The notes beneath the pieces were generated by a model. It had not been told where the DNA came from. It saw only the letters and a list, made by a program, of their open reading frames with translations, and made no database searches. Shown here piece by piece: positions 11,995 through 51,340 of a DNA stretch of 64,000 nucleotides (position 1 is its first letter; every line of letters begins with the position of its first letter). The translations under genes were made by a program, and so were the position numbers. This DNA is from a plasmid: sequence record NZ_CP154590.1. One strand, given 5' to 3'.

Positions 11995-13285
11995 CCCTTG
12001 ACTGCTCCCAGCCCTGAAGAACGGGGATTCCCACTTCAACGAGCCGAACCTAAGCCGCGTGATGCGGTTCAGGATTTACAGGCTCTCCATGGGCTAACAC
12101 TGCCAGCCCGGCAGCTTTTATATTACGGGCCGCGTTGATATCACGATCATGGTCTGCCCCGCATTCAGGACAGAGCCACTGACGAATATCAAGAGGCATG
12201 TTTTTCATGGTAAAGCCGCAACAGCTACAACGTCTGGAAGAAGGGAAATACTGGTCGATAGCGACAACGCTACGCCCTGCCCATTCCCCTTTGTACTGTA
12301 GCTGGCGAACAAGTTCGCTCCAGCTTGCGTCAGCTATCGCTTTTGACAGCTTTGGGTTGCGGATCATGTTTTTCACCTTAAGGGATTCGACGCAAACAAC
12401 TTGGTTTTCGTTAATCAGTTTGCGGGACAACTTATGCAGGTTATCCATCCGGCAATCGGACATTTTCGCGTGGAGTTTGGCGAGCTTTAAGCGGGCTTTG
12501 GCACGATTCTTTGAGCCTTTTTTCTTCCTGCTTAACATGCGTTGCTGCAAAGCCAGTCGCTTCGCATATTTAGCCGTGTGGCGTGGATTGCTGGTTTTGA
12601 ATCCGCTGTCGGTGACGAACAAATCTTTTAAACCAACATCAATGCCGACCGTGGAAACGGTAATCGGCAGTGATACAGGTTCAAACTCGCAAAGACAGGA
12701 TACGAAATATCGTCCGGCGGCATCTTTGGTGATAGTGACAGTGGATGGCGCAGACGGCAACTGACGGCTCCAGCGCACATATAACGGCGCCTTGCTCTTT
12801 GCCATGTACAACTTGCCGTCACGATATTTAAACGCGCTCGCAGTGAACTCAACCGCCTGCTTGTGGCGTTTGCTTTTGAAGGCTGGATATGCGGCTCGTC
12901 CGGCGAAGAAGTTAGCAAAGGCCATTTGTTGGTGGCGTAGCGCCTGTTGCATGGGTACGCAGGAAACGTTATTCAGCCAGGCGAATTCTGGCTCTTTTTT
13001 CAGTGCAGTTAATCGCGCGCTGGCTTGTATATAGCCGATCTTTTCCTTTCGCTCGTAGTACGCATCCGTGCGCCAGCGGAGGATGCTGTTATAGACAAAA
13101 CGTACACAGCCAAACGTCTGAGCTAAAAGCTCAGTCTGCTCTGGTGTCGGGTAAAACCGGTATTTATAGGCGCGTTTCATCGTTTCACATACTAAAGAGG
13201 ACAATTTGATTATGCAAAAGGCAGTTAGCCGGAAAACCGCTTCCTTTCCTCCCCGGCCTAAAGGCCGGGGTTTCCCGGAGGCATT
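11995..13285 (-). mobile_element. IS200/IS605-family tnpB-only element (IS1341-type) inserted in the trbB-trbC intergenic region
   Basis: Occupies exactly the gap between trbB stop (11994) and trbC RBS/start (13289). Perfect subterminal hairpin CCCCGGCC-TAAA-GGCCGGGG at 13251-13270, in the position of the left end. No Y1 tnpA present. Confidence 0.55.
12050..13204 (-). CDS. tnpB: TnpB (OrfB) RNA-guided endonuclease-type transposon protein, IS200/IS605 family
   Basis: 384 aa; N-terminal MKRAYKYRFYPT signature; RuvC-I (IDVGLKDL), RuvC-II (VCVESL), zinc finger CSCCG..CPECG and RuvC-III (DHDRDINAARNI) all intact. Confidence 0.85.
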   Translation of the reverse strand: MSSLVCETMKRAYKYRFYPTPEQTELLAQTFGCVRFVYNSILRWRTDAYYERKEKIGYIQASARLTALKKEPEFAWLNNVSCVPMQQALRHQQMAFANFFAGRAAYPAFKSKRHKQAVEFTASAFKYRDGKLYMAKSKAPLYVRWSRQLPSAPSTVTITKDAAGRYFVSCLCEFEPVSLPITVSTVGIDVGLKDLFVTDSGFKTSNPRHTAKYAKRLALQQRMLSRKKKGSKNRAKARLKLAKLHAKMSDCRMDNLHKLSRKLINENQVVCVESLKVKNMIRNPKLSKAIADASWSELVRQLQYKGEWAGRSVVAIDQYFPSSRRCSCCGFTMKNMPLDIRQWLCPECGADHDRDINAARNIKAAGLAVLAHGEPVNPEPHHAA

Positions 13286-43376: not shown

Positions 43377-43763
43377 TTATAGTTTATATGCGGCGGGTAA
43401 CCAACCGGGAGCCGGCGGCAGCGGAGAACAATTCCAGGGATGTTGCGCTGCCAGTTCCTGAATATCGTCGTCATACAGCCCAGTCCCGCCAAAATCAAAC
43501 GCCGGCCAGCGCTGGCAGGCATAGCAGTAGGCCAGAAAACCCTCATCCCGCTTCCGGGTCAGCCAGTACACCCAACTGATGGCGTAAATGTCCTGCGAGT
43601 AAGCCCCCCAGGCCACAAAAAACGCAAAGCGGGTCCAGTGGGCCAGTTCGGGGTAAAGTGGACGCATGGCAGCCAGTTCATTCAGCGTCTGCTGGTCAAG
43701 ACTGAAATCCTGCTCTTCCGTGTCGGTAACAAATGTCTCCAGATCAAACTTAAACTTTTCCAT
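43377..43763 (-). CDS. hypothetical protein (128 aa)
   Basis: ORF in the same operon-like run. Confidence 0.35.
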   Translation of the reverse strand: MEKFKFDLETFVTDTEEQDFSLDQQTLNELAAMRPLYPELAHWTRFAFFVAWGAYSQDIYAISWVYWLTRKRDEGFLAYCYACQRWPAFDFGGTGLYDDDIQELAAQHPWNCSPLPPAPGWLPAAYKL

Positions 43764-43814
43764 CCAGTGTTCCTTTATTATTGAGAAATCCCGCCTTACC
43801 CTCTGTTAATGCTT

Positions 43815-44141
43815 CTATCTGAAGCTTGCCCAGAAGTCAGGCCGAATGTCATACAGCATTGTGTCACCAACATCAGCCAGCTTTTCATCAAATTCCCCCT
43901 TATCGGGAAGACAACCATCCTTGACATCAGAAACGTCGCTTAACTCTCTTAGATGCCAGAATTCGCAGTCTGGCTCCTGGATAGCAATAACAAAACCGTA
44001 TGAATTCACCAGGTAACGCGGATTAACCGGATATTCTAAATCCCTAATCCATAATGGAGTGCTGTTTGGGATACCAAGAGCCATTCTTATTTCCAGTAAT
44101 GTCCTGTTACCAGTTCGACCAGCAGTACATCGTTTACACAT
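43815..44141 (-). CDS. hypothetical protein (89-108 aa)
   Basis: ORF; probable start at the internal MALGIP. Confidence 0.3.
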   Translation of the reverse strand: MCKRCTAGRTGNRTLLEIRMALGIPNSTPLWIRDLEYPVNPRYLVNSYGFVIAIQEPDCEFWHLRELSDVSDVKDGCLPDKGEFDEKLADVGDTMLYDIRPDFWASFR

Positions 44142-44698
44142 AAAATAGTCACTCAGAGTAATTATTACGGGCGGCAGATCTGTCTGCGCACAACCCTGCG
44201 TCTGTCACCCGGATGATTTTCCCCTGCCGTCATCATTTATAAGAGGATAATGAGCAGGCATATAGCCACGCCGTTAAATTACCGGATGGCCGTTTCGGTG
44301 TGATCCGATTTATTGCGTATTTAACAGTTTCCGGAAGTGTACCACGCACACGAAATAAGCAAAGCGGCAATATCTGCCCCTGCGCGACGGATCACGGGGA
44401 AGGGGATAAACACAACATATATAAGAAAACGCAGCTGATGGCATGGCACATGTTGTGTTTCTGCGCCGCTGCGCGCCGGAGGCCGGAGAGAAGATCCGGA
44501 ACAGACAATTTTCGGATCTGCACGGTGGGAAACCCGTAAAGAATATGATAATTAAACAAAATACATAAAATCATATCAGATTTGATATTTATCATTAATC
44601 ATATAACCATATCTAATATGATTATTGCACACAGAGTAGAAAATCACTCATGATATGATTTTTTTACTCAAGCGACATTTTCAGACGGAGCGTGCAGG

Positions 44699-44959
44699 AT
44701 GGATGAGAAAGAAGTGAATTTTTCACTCAGCTATGAGCAACTGACCCGGATAGCGGAAGAACGTATCCGTGAATGCGAGCTGGACAGCCAGGGCGCCAAA
44801 TACATCAGCGAATCGAGTAAGGCCAGCACCCTTCTGGGATTCTGGTATGAACTGGCCATTACTGGTGCGCCAATGAAAAATTACGAACAAACCAAAGCGC
44901 TCATCGACGCCGATCATCAGCGTCTCAGAAAGCTCATCTGGCCAGAGACGGATAAGTAA
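44699..44959 (+). CDS. hypothetical protein (86 aa), first gene of a 4-gene coupled operon
   Basis: Stop overlaps the next gene start (TAATG). Confidence 0.4.
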   Translation: MDEKEVNFSLSYEQLTRIAEERIRECELDSQGAKYISESSKASTLLGFWYELAITGAPMKNYEQTKALIDADHQRLRKLIWPETDK

Positions 44960-46212
44960 TGACTAAGACACGCCGACCATCGCCGCTGCAGCGGCGGGTG
45001 CTGATTGTGCTGGCCGCCCTCGATGCGAAACGTCCGGGACCGGTGGCCACGCGGGATATTGAGCGGATGCTGGAGCAGGGCGGGGACGCCCCGGTGTACG
45101 GGCCGAACCTGCGCGCCTCCTGCCGGCGTATGGAGGCCGCAGGCTGGCTGCGCACCCTGCGCGCCCCGAACCTGCAGCTGGCCGTCGAGCTGACGGACGC
45201 CGGCCGTGCGCTGGCCGCTCCGCTTCTGGCTGACGAACAGGCGCGTGTCCTGGCGGAGCAACGCACGACGGAGATCCGGGTTCTGCCCCTGGTCCGGATA
45301 AAACCGGTATACGAGTCTGACAGGTTCGGTGACGACCGGCCGGTGGAGCTGGACGGTCGCTGGCACCTGGCGTGCCGGGGCGACTACGTTATCCGTCTCG
45401 ACGGCACCACCTGCCTGCAGCTGTGGAACACGGCCGGGCAAGTGATGCGACAGGAAGGCGACCCCCTGCAGGTGGCTGAGTGGTTACAGGCCTGTCACGA
45501 TGCCGGCATTGATATCCGCCTGCAGATCAACGAAAGCACCGCGCCGGAACAGGGTACACCTTCACTGAAAGGGGCTGAGTTTCCCGGCGGGCAGGCTGCA
45601 GACACGACGGAAACCTGGTACCGGTACCTGCTGAGGGCACTGCGACAATACGATGTGCAGGGGCTGTCCGCCACAAACCCGGAGCACCTTAACGCAGTGA
45701 AGCCCGGCAGGCGTAATAAGGAACAACCGCTACAGGAACGTTTTCTGGCACTGGCGAAAACGGTGGAAGGGACCCCTGGTGCCCTTCGTTCGGATCGGTA
45801 TGAAGAGGATGCCGGCCCGCTGCTGACAGAGTTGCTGGACGGATTCGGGTTCACGCCGGACCAGGCTTCCCGCCTCATCCGCCTTATCCGCTGGCCGCTG
45901 ATGAGTCAGGAAGAATATGACCGGCGCGAGCTGAACAGCCTGCTGGATGAACTGGAACAGCGACAGCTGTACTGCAACCGCGAGCAGCTGACTGAGATTG
46001 TGTTTTCACCGGTCCGCCAACCCGGCGAGCGCTGGACTGACCGTCTGCAGTGGCTCCTGATTACGGACGGATTCGGGTTCTGCAGTCCGCTGTCCCGTGA
46101 CGCAGGCGCCCGGGCGTTGGCGATCCTGGCCGGCTACACGGGGCAGGAGGTGGCGGAACATCTGGCCACGGTGATCGTCTGGAACAACCACAGCGCGGGG
46201 ACGCCGTCATGA
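44959..46212 (+). CDS. GC-rich hypothetical protein with N-terminal winged-helix (417 aa)
   Basis: MTKTRRPSPLQRRVLIVLAALDAK...ATRDIERML resembles a MarR/PadR-type wHTH; GC clearly higher than the surrounding backbone; start and stop both overlap neighbouring genes. Confidence 0.45.
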   Translation: MTKTRRPSPLQRRVLIVLAALDAKRPGPVATRDIERMLEQGGDAPVYGPNLRASCRRMEAAGWLRTLRAPNLQLAVELTDAGRALAAPLLADEQARVLAEQRTTEIRVLPLVRIKPVYESDRFGDDRPVELDGRWHLACRGDYVIRLDGTTCLQLWNTAGQVMRQEGDPLQVAEWLQACHDAGIDIRLQINESTAPEQGTPSLKGAEFPGGQAADTTETWYRYLLRALRQYDVQGLSATNPEHLNAVKPGRRNKEQPLQERFLALAKTVEGTPGALRSDRYEEDAGPLLTELLDGFGFTPDQASRLIRLIRWPLMSQEEYDRRELNSLLDELEQRQLYCNREQLTEIVFSPVRQPGERWTDRLQWLLITDGFGFCSPLSRDAGARALAILAGYTGQEVAEHLATVIVWNNHSAGTPS

Positions 46213-46889
46213 GCACAGGCAACGTCCATTTGATTGTAACCTGCACGCGCCGCAAAACCGTGCCTGCAGGTGATGCGGTCTTTCCGGATGAACGTGACGT
46301 GGAGAGAGCTTACGGGCTCTGGATGGAAAGACTGGCGCAGGCCCGTCGCGGATCGCCCCCCATGACCGCCGGCGAACTGTATACGGGCCAGCACTGGTGC
46401 AGGGCAGTTGCAGCTGCGGCGCGAAACGGTGCCGAAATGTGGGTGATTTCAGCTGGCCTGGGGCTACTACATGCCTCTGATCCCGTGGTCCCGTATGAGG
46501 CGACATTTTCCTCGATGCCGTTCTGCCATCGCACTCACTGGGAACGACTGACAACACGTCCACTTTCGGAACGACGGTGTACCTCCCTGAAAATGCTGAT
46601 GCAGACAAGGCCTGACGATCGGTTTGTAGTGGCGGCCTCCCCAGTATACCTGCGTGCCGTGGAATCAGACCTTCTCGCGGGAAGGTACACGCTACGAGCA
46701 CCTGAACAGTTGACGGTTGTCACCTCAAAAGGCTATCAGGGCAGCCTGAAGGACAGTGTCCGGTATACGAGCGCAGGAATGATGAAGGGGCTGAATACCA
46801 ACATGACAGGATTAAATATTAGTTATGCCGTGCAGTTGATTGGTAATGAGGAAGATCGCAGCAGAACAGCACATGAGGTATATGCATGA
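46209..46889 (+). CDS. hypothetical protein (226 aa)
   Basis: ATGA overlaps at both ends (coupled to the 417-aa gene and to nuc). Confidence 0.4.
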   Translation: MSTGNVHLIVTCTRRKTVPAGDAVFPDERDVERAYGLWMERLAQARRGSPPMTAGELYTGQHWCRAVAAAARNGAEMWVISAGLGLLHASDPVVPYEATFSSMPFCHRTHWERLTTRPLSERRCTSLKMLMQTRPDDRFVVAASPVYLRAVESDLLAGRYTLRAPEQLTVVTSKGYQGSLKDSVRYTSAGMMKGLNTNMTGLNISYAVQLIGNEEDRSRTAHEVYA

Positions 46890-47359
46890 TCCGCCTGTTA
46901 TGTTCAATAGTTATGATCGTTCTGACGTTTTCTGCCAGCGCGGATGTCAGCGGCAGGGTTGTGCGCGTGCTGGATGGAGATACCGTTGAGATTCTTGAAA
47001 CAGGGAACAGAGTGACCCGTGTTCGTCTGGCCGGCATTGATGCACCCGAAAAGAGCCAGCCCTTTGGCCAGCGCTCCCGTCAGGCTCTTTCATCGATGGT
47101 GGCGCAGCGAACCGTAACCGTCACGGGAGGAGATACGGATCGTTATGGACGGCTATTGGGTACGGTGTGGCTTGACGCTAAGGACGTGAATGCCGAACAG
47201 ATCCGTAAGGGACTGGCCTGGGCGTACCGATATCACGGAAAACCCATCAAACCTGACTACGCTGCCCTCGAAGACGAAGCCAGACGTCTGGCAATCGGAC
47301 TCTGGTCAGCCCCCGACCAGACAGAACCCTGGCGTTGGCGGAAGCAACATCAGGGATAA
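46886..47359 (+). CDS. nuc: secreted thermonuclease-family (SNase-like) endonuclease, Nuc
   Basis: 157 aa; signal peptide; SNase core RVLDGDTVEI...VRLAGIDAPE...YGRLLGTVW. Confidence 0.8.
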   Translation: MIRLLCSIVMIVLTFSASADVSGRVVRVLDGDTVEILETGNRVTRVRLAGIDAPEKSQPFGQRSRQALSSMVAQRTVTVTGGDTDRYGRLLGTVWLDAKDVNAEQIRKGLAWAYRYHGKPIKPDYAALEDEARRLAIGLWSAPDQTEPWRWRKQHQG

Positions 47360-47683
47360 GGCTCTCTCAATGACGCCCTGAATCCGAACGTTGCCGACAG
47401 CAGGGGAAACCGATTACCTGTGCCTGTGTGAAAATGCCTGCATCCTGTGCTACGAGTTCTCACGATGCCAGGCGGCCGATTTGACTGCCAGTGCCAGTGC
47501 GCGTCCTTCTCCTTTCTTTTCCTGTTATACATAGCAACACGCAGATATATATTGACGGAAATAAAATGCACTTAAGTTAAAACTAATGGACATATCAGAA
47601 CATAACCTATAAATTTATATATGTGCAGTAGAAACAAGTCTAATTAAATATATATCATTAACAATTTCCTCAGGAGTTCTAAA

Positions 47684-47968
47684 ATGAATAAGAAGAGTGA
47701 CAGAACCTTTCCTAAACCATTTTATTTTGCAGTCCTGTATGTAATAACGTTTTCCTTTTCTTACGCATGTTTATCTGAAATTCAACTAATTGTGTCAAAT
47801 AATAATTCGCAAATTGATGCGGTGTGGCCATTAAACTGGATTACAGATCCGAACCAACGCATCTATGGTGCAGCTTTTTTAGGAGTGCTTATCTGCTGGG
47901 TTATTAATATTGTTTTCAACAAAGTTATTTTTACAAAGTATAAGAATTCGAGAAAACAATCCATCTGA
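47684..47968 (+). CDS. small hydrophobic protein of unknown function
   Basis: 94-aa low-GC ORF with two TM-like segments; RBS AGGAG. Confidence 0.3.
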   Translation: MNKKSDRTFPKPFYFAVLYVITFSFSYACLSEIQLIVSNNNSQIDAVWPLNWITDPNQRIYGAAFLGVLICWVINIVFNKVIFTKYKNSRKQSI

Positions 47969-48637: not shown

Positions 48638-49683
48638 TTATCCTCGTTTTTCCCAAAACTGTTTTGCCAGTTCGCTCAGAGCGCTAGTTAACTGAGCGAC
48701 AGATTTCGCACTTTGCAAATTATTCTGCCCGGTCTGTACATTGGTATCAGCAGCATCGCGTATATTGATAATACTGCGGTTTATGTCTTCACTTACTGCT
48801 CCCTGCTGCTCGACCGCAGTCGCTATTTGCGCGTTCATGTCGGTAATTTCGTTAACGCGTTGGCCAATTCCATCAAGAGCTGTAGCTGCTTCCTCTGCGT
48901 GAGCTACACTCGTGTGCGCTTGCCGACTACTTTGCTCCATGACTGTAACAGCGGATTGCGCTCGCTCTTGTAGAGCGCTGATCATGCTTTGAATATCCGT
49001 TGTCGATTGCTGTGTGCGAGCAGCAAGACTGCGAACCTCATCGGCGACAACAGCAAAACCACGCCCCTGCTCACCAGCACGCGCGGCCTCAATTGCTGCG
49101 TTGAGTGCCAACAAATTCGTTTGCTCGGCGATCCCTCGTATAACGTCAAGAACTTTTGATATCTCGTTACTTTGACCTTCAAGCTCATGAATAACCTGAG
49201 TGGCTTGCCTAATTTCACCTTCAAGGGCAGTGATTGACTGGCTTGTGTGGGCTACCAGACGCTGGCCAGATGCCGTCTCAGTGTCTGCTCTTCCGGCCGC
49301 ATCTGCAGCATGCTGTGCATTGCTCGCAACCTCTTGAATGCTTGCCACCATTTGGTTTACTGCCGTTGCTATTTGATCTGTCTCTGCCTGCTGCTCAACT
49401 GTAAGTACATTGCTTGACTCAATATCCTTTAGTAGGCCTCGGGTGTGTTCGCTAAGCCGATTTGATGCATCACCTATGCGACCTACTATAGCGCCTGTTT
49501 CAGCTTGCATCATTCGTAAAGCAAACTCTATTTGGCCAAACTCATCGGTGCGCCCAGTGTAGAGGGATTGACTTAATGGGTTATTGGAAATATTCCTGGC
49601 TCTTTCAACCAGTCTTCCAAGAGGAGAGAGAATAGCCAAAACACTAACAGAGCTTAAGCTTCCTGACATTAAAGTGGCTAACA
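48638..49683 (-). pseudogene. mcp: Tn1721 orfI (mcp) C-terminal fragment: HAMP plus methyl-accepting signalling domain
   Basis: MCP signalling-domain repeats; reading frame abuts the ISEcp1 IRL at 49684; in frame with the N-terminal fragment at 54487-55018 once the insert is removed. Confidence 0.8.
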
Positions 49684-51340
49684 CCTAGATTCTACGTCAG
49701 TACTTCAAAAAGCATAATCAAAGCCTTGATAAATATGCATTCCTTCGAAATTCAGCTTTCACCCATTGGGTGAAAGAAAAGTGCTCAAAAATATGTTAAA
49801 TTATCAGCTTTTATGACTCGATATATGGTAAAATAATAGTAAGAAAAGTAGTAAAAAGGGGTTCTAATTATGATTAATAAAATTGATTTCAAAGCTAAGA
49901 ATCTAACATCAAATGCAGGTCTTTTTCTGCTCCTTGAGAATGCAAAAAGCAATGGGATTTTTGATTTTATTGAAAATGACCTCGTATTTGATAATGACTC
50001 AACAAATAAAATCAAGATGAATCATATAAAGACCATGCTCTGCGGTCACTTCATTGGCATTGATAAGTTAGAACGTCTAAAGCTACTTCAAAATGATCCC
50101 CTCGTCAACGAGTTTGATATTTCCGTAAAAGAACCTGAAACAGTGTCACGGTTTCTAGGAAACTTCAACTTCAAGACAACCCAAATGTTTAGAGACATTA
50201 ATTTTAAAGTCTTTAAAAAACTGCTCACTAAAAGTAAATTGACATCCATTACGATTGATATTGATAGTAGTGTAATTAACGTAGAAGGTCATCAAGAAGG
50301 TGCGTCAAAAGGATATAATCCTAAGAAACTGGGAAACCGATGCTACAATATCCAATTTGCATTTTGCGACGAATTAAAAGCATATGTTACCGGATTTGTA
50401 AGAAGTGGCAATACTTACACTGCAAACGGTGCTGCGGAAATGATCAAAGAAATTGTTGCTAACATCAAATCAGACGATTTAGAAATTTTATTTCGAATGG
50501 ATAGTGGCTACTTTGATGAAAAAATTATCGAAACGATAGAATCTCTTGGATGCAAATATTTAATTAAAGCCAAAAGTTATTCTACACTCACCTCACAAGC
50601 AACGAATTCATCAATTGTATTCGTTAAAGGAGAAGAAGGTAGAGAAACTACAGAACTGTATACAAAATTAGTTAAATGGGAAAAAGACAGAAGATTTGTC
50701 GTATCTCGCGTACTGAAACCAGAAAAAGAAAGAGCACAATTATCACTTTTAGAAGGTTCCGAATACGACTACTTTTTCTTTGTAACAAATACTACCTTGC
50801 TTTCTGAAAAAGTAGTTATATACTATGAAAAGCGTGGTAATGCTGAAAACTATATCAAAGAAGCCAAATACGACATGGCGGTGGGTCATCTCTTGCTAAA
50901 GTCATTTTGGGCGAATGAAGCCGTGTTTCAAATGATGATGCTTTCATATAACCTATTTTTGTTGTTCAAGTTTGATTCCTTGGACTCTTCAGAATACAGA
51001 CAGCAAATAAAGACCTTTCGTTTGAAGTATGTATTTCTTGCAGCAAAAATAATCAAAACCGCAAGATATGTAATCATGAAGTTGTCGGAAAACTATCCGT
51101 ACAAGGGAGTGTATGAAAAATGTCTGGTATAATAAGAATATCATCAATAAAATTGAGTGTTGCTCTGTGGATAACTTGCAGAGTTTATTAAGTATCATTG
51201 CAGCAAAGATGAAATCAATGATTTATCAAAAATGATTGAAAGGTGGTTGTAAATAATGTTACAATGTGTGAGAAGCAGTCTAAATTCTTCGTGAAATAGT
51301 GATTTTTGAAGCTAATAAAAAACACACGTGGAATTTAGGG
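49684..51340 (+). mobile_element. ISEcp1 (IS1380 family)
   Basis: IRL CCTAGATTCTACGTCAGTAC at 49684; IRR ..ACACACGTGGAATTTAGGG ending 51340; 1657 bp. Confidence 0.9.
49870..51132 (+). CDS. tnpA: ISEcp1 transposase
   Basis: 420 aa, low GC; MINKIDFKAKNLTSNAGL N-terminus; DDE family. Confidence 0.9.
   Translation: MINKIDFKAKNLTSNAGLFLLLENAKSNGIFDFIENDLVFDNDSTNKIKMNHIKTMLCGHFIGIDKLERLKLLQNDPLVNEFDISVKEPETVSRFLGNFNFKTTQMFRDINFKVFKKLLTKSKLTSITIDIDSSVINVEGHQEGASKGYNPKKLGNRCYNIQFAFCDELKAYVTGFVRSGNTYTANGAAEMIKEIVANIKSDDLEILFRMDSGYFDEKIIETIESLGCKYLIKAKSYSTLTSQATNSSIVFVKGEEGRETTELYTKLVKWEKDRRFVVSRVLKPEKERAQLSLLEGSEYDYFFFVTNTTLLSEKVVIYYEKRGNAENYIKEAKYDMAVGHLLLKSFWANEAVFQMMMLSYNLFLLFKFDSLDSSEYRQQIKTFRLKYVFLAAKIIKTARYVIMKLSENYPYKGVYEKCLV

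Follow-up and report, generated by a model that had tools for sequence, protein, structure and literature searches.

A ydfA-ydeA-headed gene block carrying a DpdC-like DUF6884 gene and a nuclease gene on a plasmid with IncI-like transfer genes

Organisation of the four-gene block

The window analysed here is a stretch of 64,000 nucleotides of the plasmid record NZ_CP154590.1. It carries a block of four genes on the + strand: orf86 (44699-44959), which encodes a small protein of 86 residues homologous to YdfA; orf417 (44959-46212; 417 residues), of which residues 1-196 (44959-45546) are homologous to YdeA and residues 197-417 (45547-46212) form an extension that is confined to long forms of YdeA; orf226 (46209-46889; 226 residues), a DpdC-like gene of the DUF6884 family; and nuc (46886-47359; 157 residues), which encodes a protein of the staphylococcal nuclease (thermonuclease) family. 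Upstream, on the same strand, lies an AT-rich leader (44543-44662) with TATGAT/ATCATA repeats and palindromes, which we regard as a putative promoter and operator. We consider it somewhat probable that the block is an autoregulated operon of accessory cargo on a conjugative plasmid of the I-complex type, with the ydfA-ydeA pair and its leader at the head.

The genes overlap at every junction. The junction of orf86 and orf417 reads gataagTAATGact, where the stop codon of the former shares one base with the start codon of the latter (TAATG), and four bases are shared between orf417 and orf226 (gtcATGAgc) and again between orf226 and nuc (gcATGAtc), such that orf226 has an ATGA overlap at each end. 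The initial annotation, which was made from this DNA alone, had described these overlapping stop and start codons, and we read the same TAATG, ATGA and ATGA at the three junctions. Within these four genes, a consensus scan detected neither a promoter-like site nor, on the + strand, a terminator-like one, and an Rfam search of positions 43700-47800 returned no match. The four genes form a tightly packed and probably co-translated unit.

orf417, at 0.649 (0.751 at third codon positions), is the peak of guanine plus cytosine (GC) content in the whole window, in which segments of 1254 bp have a mean of 0.513 (standard deviation 0.051). orf226 (0.559) and nuc (0.563) are mildly above that mean. The earlier observation that orf417 and orf226 are conspicuously GC-richer than the plasmid backbone therefore stands for orf417 and only weakly for orf226. 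The foreign origin that had been read from it is not supported. The GC-richest part of orf417 is its YdeA-like N-terminal half (0.68), and ydeA has a GC content of 0.645 in IncI-gamma plasmids, where the locus as a whole has 0.47, and of 0.675 in Klebsiella IncF plasmids. Because these other copies are equally GC-rich, the high GC content is a family trait of ydeA and no mark of recent import.

The ydfA-ydeA head

The names ydfA, for the small gene, and ydeA come from the literature. orf86 shares 64% identity with its homologue in ColIb-P9 and 63.5% with that of IncI-gamma plasmids; for residues 1-196 of orf417, the identity to YdeA is 71% in ColIb-P9 and 71.9% in IncI-gamma plasmids. orf86 belongs to no Pfam family; in UniRef, a full-length homologue of orf417 with 72% identity carries the name 'YdeA protein'. 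By these similarities, orf86 and the N-terminal half of orf417 are identified as homologues of YdfA and YdeA, i.e. of named but uncharacterised backbone genes. By the terms of the initial annotation, its proposal would fall if orf417 and orf226 matched well-characterised IncI backbone genes with unrelated roles. This is half the case: orf86 and the N-terminal half of orf417 match ydfA and ydeA, but no role has been established for either gene.

The pair is widespread. In a tblastn search of plasmid records, orf417 found at least 5000 plasmids, nearly all of which match residues 1-196 alone, at 65-72% identity; 298 of these at least 5000 records match over at least 80% of its length. The homologues in IncI-gamma plasmids, ColIb-P9 and Klebsiella IncF plasmids are ydeA genes of 191-196 codons, preceded by an overlapping orf86 homologue of 84-89 codons, and the relatives share a backbone site beside a resD-type integrase gene, parA, parM and umuDC. 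In the IncI1 plasmid pUA1135, ydfA, ydeA, ibfA and a proQ-like gene were found on one transcript by reverse transcription PCR, and ibfA of this plasmid is a phage-defence gene.

A toxin-antitoxin reading of ydfA-ydeA was considered and rejected: the locus has no toxin-like partner, PADLOC returned no such system, and a test for AbiE gave AbiEi_4 as its sole match, to the IncI-gamma YdeA at a sub-threshold 15.2 bits against a cut-off of 25.

An AlphaFold model of orf417 (mean predicted local distance difference test score 79.7) has four regions, comprising a winged helix-turn-helix (about residues 1-104), a domain of five beta strands and one helix (125-195), a variable, disordered linker and helical middle (197-310) and a conserved helical C-terminal module (311-410). 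The winged helix that had been predicted at the N-terminus is thus present as a fold in the model. Compared with regulators of the MarR/PadR/HxlR type, it thus has the fold, but its only match to a curated family profile is to PaaX, at 14.2 bits and below the cut-off of 24.8, with none from NCBIfam or PADLOC. A phmmer search of 1.84 billion representative sequences gave 257 matches, nearly all of them fragments or close relatives, and no homologue outside the enterobacterial plasmid family. Neither sequence nor fold comparison detected a relative of the C-terminal extension of about 220 residues.

A motif, GFGF(T/C)xxQA, occurs twice in the C-terminal half of orf417, at residues 291-302 (45829-45864) and 371-381 (46069-46101). 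It also occurs two to three times in a protein of 395 residues encoded upstream of the DUF6884 gene of pOXA-48 (locus L005, 5514-6701). Homology between the C-terminal half of orf417 and this protein was rejected: BLASTP gave an E value of 0.003, but hhalign a probability below 5%. Only the short GFGFTxxQA motif is in common, and we therefore discarded the idea of a shared partner module for DUF6884.

A conserved leader with palindromes

The leader holds TATGAT/ATCATA repeats at -155, -129, -101, -82 and -45 relative to the ATG of ydfA. Five of the nine ATCATAT matches in the window fall within the 117 bp of positions 44543-44659. None of 20,000 composition-matched mononucleotide shuffles of positions 44540-44700 had three or more such matches, and a first-order Markov model gave five or more in 3 of 20,000 sequences. 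The repeat cluster noticed in the initial annotation is accordingly real and statistically significant. The ATCATAT and ATATGAT sites pair into 17-bp palindromes, ATCATATCNGATATGAT, which with up to three mismatches are found in the window only at 44570-44586 and 44606-44622 (0.15 expected); a third, imperfect palindrome lies at about 44643-44662. The best -10-like hexamer of the leader is the TATGAT at 44617, and the paper on ibfA of IncI1 predicted a promoter 103 bp upstream of ydfA.

Further upstream lies an inverted repeat, AGATCCGGAA...TTTCGGATCT (44492-44519), which is followed by GGGAAACCCG; IncI-gamma plasmids, IncF(K) plasmids and others likewise keep this repeat ahead of ydfA. Conservation is higher in the right arm and the adjoining GGGAAACCCG than in the left arm, which speaks for a site of protein binding more than for a hairpin. 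Over the 260 bp upstream of ydfA, an alignment of eight plasmid lineages has a mean identity of 68%, and the palindromes, the inverted repeat ahead of them and the start region (CAGACGGAGCGTGCAGGATG) are in register across all eight. The leader was also considered as an rfsF resolution site, which is unlikely because in ColIb-P9 ydfA and the integrase/rfsF region are several genes apart.

orf226 as an orphan DpdC-like DUF6884 protein

orf226 matches the Pfam family PF21818 (DUF6884) with 43.5 bits (cut-off 30). Its strongest profile match is to the PADLOC model of DpdC, PDLC02818 (E value 2.5e-43, 146.5 bits), and six further PADLOC models of DpdC match with E values of 1e-7 to 1e-21; the candidate defence family PDC-M57A matches as well. 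Close homologues appear in some database entries as 'tgtA5 cluster protein 2', which is the old name of DpdC. In an alignment of orf226 homologues, C12-T-R-R-K16, I-S81-A-G-L-G85, Y96-E-A-T-F100 and further motifs are invariant, and the CxxxK and SAGxG motifs are so across homologues of 37-87% identity. The Pfam curators, who defined the CxxxK and LSAxxG motifs of DUF6884, described the family as related to the DNA-binding protein YaaA and reported an AlphaFold3 model, of high confidence, in which a base is flipped out (PMC11701544). A profile of the DUF6884 family had no sequence match among solved structures in the PDB, YaaA included, and profile searches for authentic DpdC returned proteins of the plasmid type only.

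These matches raise the possibility that orf226 is a working DpdC, which would take 7-cyano-7-deazaguanine (preQ0) that the DNA already contains and hydrolyse it to the amide (ADG). The substrate could be plasmid DNA that DpdA and DpdB of the host have modified, in which case the enzyme would match the plasmid to the mark of a Dpd-positive host, or it could be the preQ0-containing DNA of a phage, with a role in defence or anti-defence. Besides the strong profile matches, the old name of its homologues and the match to PDC-M57A, such a role would be in keeping with the biochemistry of DpdC, a DUF6884 protein that acts on preQ0-DNA and converts it to ADG-DNA in vitro without DpdA or DpdB (PMC10164549), and with the slot downstream of ydeA, which holds a defence gene in IncI1. 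On the other side, no gene for dpdA (TGT-like), dpdB (a DndB/ParB-like ATPase) or preQ0 synthesis is annotated in the span of the window in two plasmid records that are 100% identical to it, and none of them lies beside the orf226 homologues of pOXA-48, Rts1, IncHI2 plasmids and pGH44TC. The match leaves out the last quarter of the DpdC model at the C-terminal end, orf226 has 226 residues against about 300-319 positions in the DpdC profiles, and NCBIfam has no matching model. Homologues of orf226 occur on 2936 plasmids, about 4% of PLSDB, of IncL/M, IncT, IncHI2 and IncF types, a spread over many incompatibility (Inc) groups that fits poorly with dependence on a sporadic genomic island, and no homologue was found among 50,697 phage records. 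We regard a working DpdC as distinctly unlikely.

A second possibility is that orf226 handles lesions in plasmid DNA, at abasic, ribonucleotide or mismatched sites, and protects the plasmid during or after transfer; the neighbouring UmuDC and, in relatives, an SRAP peptidase would then share a theme with it. In pulldowns, YfjM of Bacillus subtilis, a DUF6884 protein, was enriched on probes with abasic sites or RNA bases (ribonucleotide lesions), and the base-flipping model and the relationship to YaaA point in the same direction. SRAP/YedK genes adjoin nuc in relatives, with a remnant here, and umuDC is nearby both here and in pOXA-48. The proximity of umuDC and SRAP genes may, however, be plain backbone synteny. 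The operon runs opposite to the genes of the leading region and is roughly 22-25 kb away from the relaxase/oriT region, which makes it no obvious candidate for early entry. Lesion handling is, on this evidence, rather unlikely, although we rate it above a working DpdC.

The plasmids that carry orf226 homologues include pOXA-48-type IncL/M plasmids (51% identity), Rts1 (IncT) and large Klebsiella plasmids, and the neighbouring genes are unrelated. The start of the DUF6884 gene overlaps the stop codon of an unrelated upstream gene by ATGA in loci L010 (7435-8660) and L012 (7630-8630) and in pOXA-48 (L005, 5514-7672). Because of these overlaps with unrelated genes, the DUF6884 gene looks like a passenger that is regularly coupled to whatever precedes it. 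An obligate partnership of long YdeA and DUF6884 was rejected, as long YdeA occurs without DUF6884, and short YdeA occurs with it in L012 and L013. One such long YdeA, of 403 residues, is encoded on an IncF plasmid of Klebsiella variicola, where unrelated genes follow and neither DUF6884 nor nuc is present.

nuc and the right-hand boundary

Nuc matches the Pfam family PF00565 (SNase) with an E value of 1.2e-25 and 90.4 bits (cut-off 21) over positions 1-106 of the 107-position profile, and its catalytic and calcium-binding motifs DGDT, RVRLAGIDAPE and DRYGR, as read from the sequence, are intact. One GenBank record labels it 'ParB'. Plasmid nucleases of the staphylococcal nuclease type are exemplified by ParB of RP4/RK2. 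Nuc resembles these in its SNase fold, catalytic motifs and plasmid location, and differs in lying outside any parCBA-type stability operon. Judged by eye, the start of Nuc, MIRLLCSIVMIVLTFSASA/DV, looks like a signal peptide of residues 1-19 (46886-46942), and the copies in L008, L009 and L011 likewise have a hydrophobic N-terminus with SAD or HAD at its end. The signal peptide that the initial annotation had assigned to nuc is thus supported by how this N-terminus looks and by its likeness to those of relatives.

That annotation had also proposed that orf417 and orf226 are a dedicated pair of regulator and accessory protein that controls the production or activity of the periplasmic DNase, the whole being one functional system for defence, competition or the control of DNA uptake. 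The three successive overlapping junctions are in keeping with this, as is the fact that several plasmids of Citrobacter and Enterobacter have the four genes in this order, and so does L011, where YdeA is shorter. Against it, nuc is missing downstream of the DUF6884 gene in L012 and L013, and in the Enterobacter plasmids of L008 and L009 a gene for an acyltransferase of 673 residues separates the two, nuc having its own start there. Long YdeA is encoded without DUF6884 or nuc, and DUF6884 genes are ATGA-coupled elsewhere to other upstream genes. Nuc has a signal peptide and orf226 has none, so the two would act in different compartments. With nuc variably present, long YdeA and DUF6884 occurring apart and the block found in 8 of 72,556 plasmid records, we set the proposal aside as very unlikely.

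The intervening gene of L008 (8832-10853) and L009 (8820-10841) would encode a membrane acyltransferase, judged by eye to have an N-terminus of the acyltransferase-3 type and an SGNH-like C-terminus.

To the right of nuc, on the - strand, a remnant of 13 residues (VSPAVGNVRIQGV; 47372-47410) corresponds to the C-terminus of a gene for an abasic-site peptidase of the SRAP/YedK type; related plasmids have this gene intact, in convergent orientation to nuc. The homology to them ends near 47414, and the SRAP/YedK-type gene is therefore truncated here; its remnant marks the point at which the conserved block breaks off on the right.

Modularity and proposed model

The whole block of 3.3 kb, at a threshold of at least 80%, is what was found in those 8 records, and the exact arrangement of four genes is rare, with individual parts that mostly belong to known families. 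What follows ydeA varies between plasmids. On the same strand, it is a gene for a DNA-binding protein together with Hha in Klebsiella IncF plasmids, a TraX-family gene in pBM527-4, DUF6884 and nuc here, and ibfA in IncI1; in IncI-gamma plasmids and ColIb-P9, DUF6404 and colicin immunity genes follow on the opposite strand. To judge from these comparisons, the block is a mosaic, with a widespread ydfA-ydeA pair at the head and two movable passenger genes behind it.

The structure of the genes, their homologies, the conserved leader and the modular way in which the parts are distributed are direct observations, and we propose the following mechanism for the autoregulated cargo operon. YdeA, through its winged helix, would bind as a dimer to the 17-bp palindromes, which overlap -10-like TATGAT elements, and would thereby set the transcription of everything downstream. 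The four genes would be co-transcribed in this plasmid, and the downstream genes would be interchangeable passengers on the ydfA-ydeA promoter, each translationally coupled to the gene before it. In the cytoplasm, orf226 probably binds DNA and flips a base that is modified or damaged out of the helix, on which its Cys-Lys site then acts; this base chemistry, as we infer it, would proceed without DpdA or DpdB. Nuc would be exported by the Sec pathway and act in the periplasm as a calcium-dependent DNase of the SNase type.

Several points weigh against this model. The consensus scan of the leader called no sigma-70 promoter, and the -35 elements are weak. In IncI1, ydfA-ydeA was deleted along with ibfA, such that the effect of the pair was not separated from that of ibfA. 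orf226 spans positions 3-234 of the 319-position DpdC model. Finally, ydfA-ydeA lies immediately upstream in five of the six loci that have close relatives of orf226 (at least 60% identity), and a specific partnership of YdeA and DUF6884 in this close clade may therefore exist.

Plasmid context

The two identical records are CP035635.1 (Enterobacter cloacae EN3600 plasmid unnamed3) and NZ_KP987215.1 (Citrobacter freundii p112298-KPC). Both have the replicon type rep_cluster_1444, the latter IncU as well, and a MOBP relaxase. According to their annotation, the window holds I-type transfer genes (traJ to traY, excA and a pilV shufflon); the backbone is therefore IncI-like, though the replicon is not IncI1. 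To the left of the operon are the resD-type integrase gene, parA, parM and umuDC, and, in the leading region, also leftward, ardA, psiB, psiA, a ParB-like gene, hok and a methylase gene. ISEcp1-blaCTX-M-14 is on the right.

Two further reading frames of the window were noted. One, at 12050-13204 on the - strand, encodes a protein of the TnpB family (RNA-guided endonuclease) and is inserted in the I-type transfer genes, between trbC and a thioredoxin-fold gene. The other, at 48638-49684 on the - strand, encodes 348 residues that resemble a methyl-accepting chemotaxis protein in its cytoplasmic signalling part and lack the N-terminal sensor region; it is flanked by an AT-rich stretch and ISEcp1-blaCTX-M-14, and the plasmid gene tables list no feature there.

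Comparison with known systems and significance

The closest known counterpart of the operon is the ydfA-ydeA(-ibfA) unit of IncI1 (R64, ColIb-P9, pUA1135, pS88). There too a small gene overlaps a winged-helix gene, the leader is AT-rich with palindromes, the backbone site is likewise near umuDC/impB and the downstream genes vary. In contrast, YdeA has 417 residues here and 196 there, the difference being the C-terminal extension, and the cargo is DUF6884 and nuc here but ibfA or colicin genes there. With DpdC of the 7-deazaguanine restriction-modification (Dpd) system of Salmonella Montevideo, orf226 shares the DUF6884 family and a strong profile match, whereas dpdA, dpdB and dpdD-K are not present here, and orf226 is shorter, plasmid-borne and widespread across Inc groups. 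YfjM of B. subtilis and YaaA of Escherichia coli (DUF328/PF03883) belong to the same superfamily, with CxxxK and LSAxxG-type motifs and a proposed ability to bind DNA and flip bases, the lesion pulldown data being those of YfjM; they are, however, encoded by chromosomal stand-alone genes, unlike orf226 with its place in a plasmid operon. The pOXA-48 (IncL/M) locus encodes, in order, the protein of 395 residues (with a RelB-like N-terminus and internal repeats), a helix-turn-helix protein of 90 residues and DUF6884. It resembles the present locus in the 51% identity of its DUF6884 protein, in the ATGA overlap of this gene with an upstream gene for a DNA-binding protein and in being near tyrosine recombinase and umuDC genes; it differs in that the upstream proteins are unrelated except for the short GFGFTxxQA motif, and nuc is absent.

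The part of the locus with real potential for novelty is the substrate of orf226, which may involve preQ0-DNA chemistry, YfjM-like lesion recognition or something new. It is conceivable, if unlikely in our estimate, that the orphan DpdC-like DUF6884 proteins are an unrecognised class of plasmid enzymes that modify or edit DNA bases. Were this so, they would write, erase or convert a mark on DNA, be it the 7-deazaguanine nitrile or another adduct, and could help plasmids to evade host defences or to attack incoming DNA; in the present lineage, such an enzyme would have been captured under a YdeA-controlled promoter.

Both ydfA-ydeA (at least 5000 PLSDB plasmids) and stand-alone DUF6884 genes (about 2900, including the epidemic pOXA-48 backbone) are very common gene sets. 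If ydfA-ydeA heads a cargo slot, it would mark a predictable place in which new plasmid defence and accessory genes may be sought; and if enzymes of the orf226 type modify DNA on their own, 7-deazaguanine-type or related chemistry would extend from rare genomic islands to mainstream resistance plasmids.

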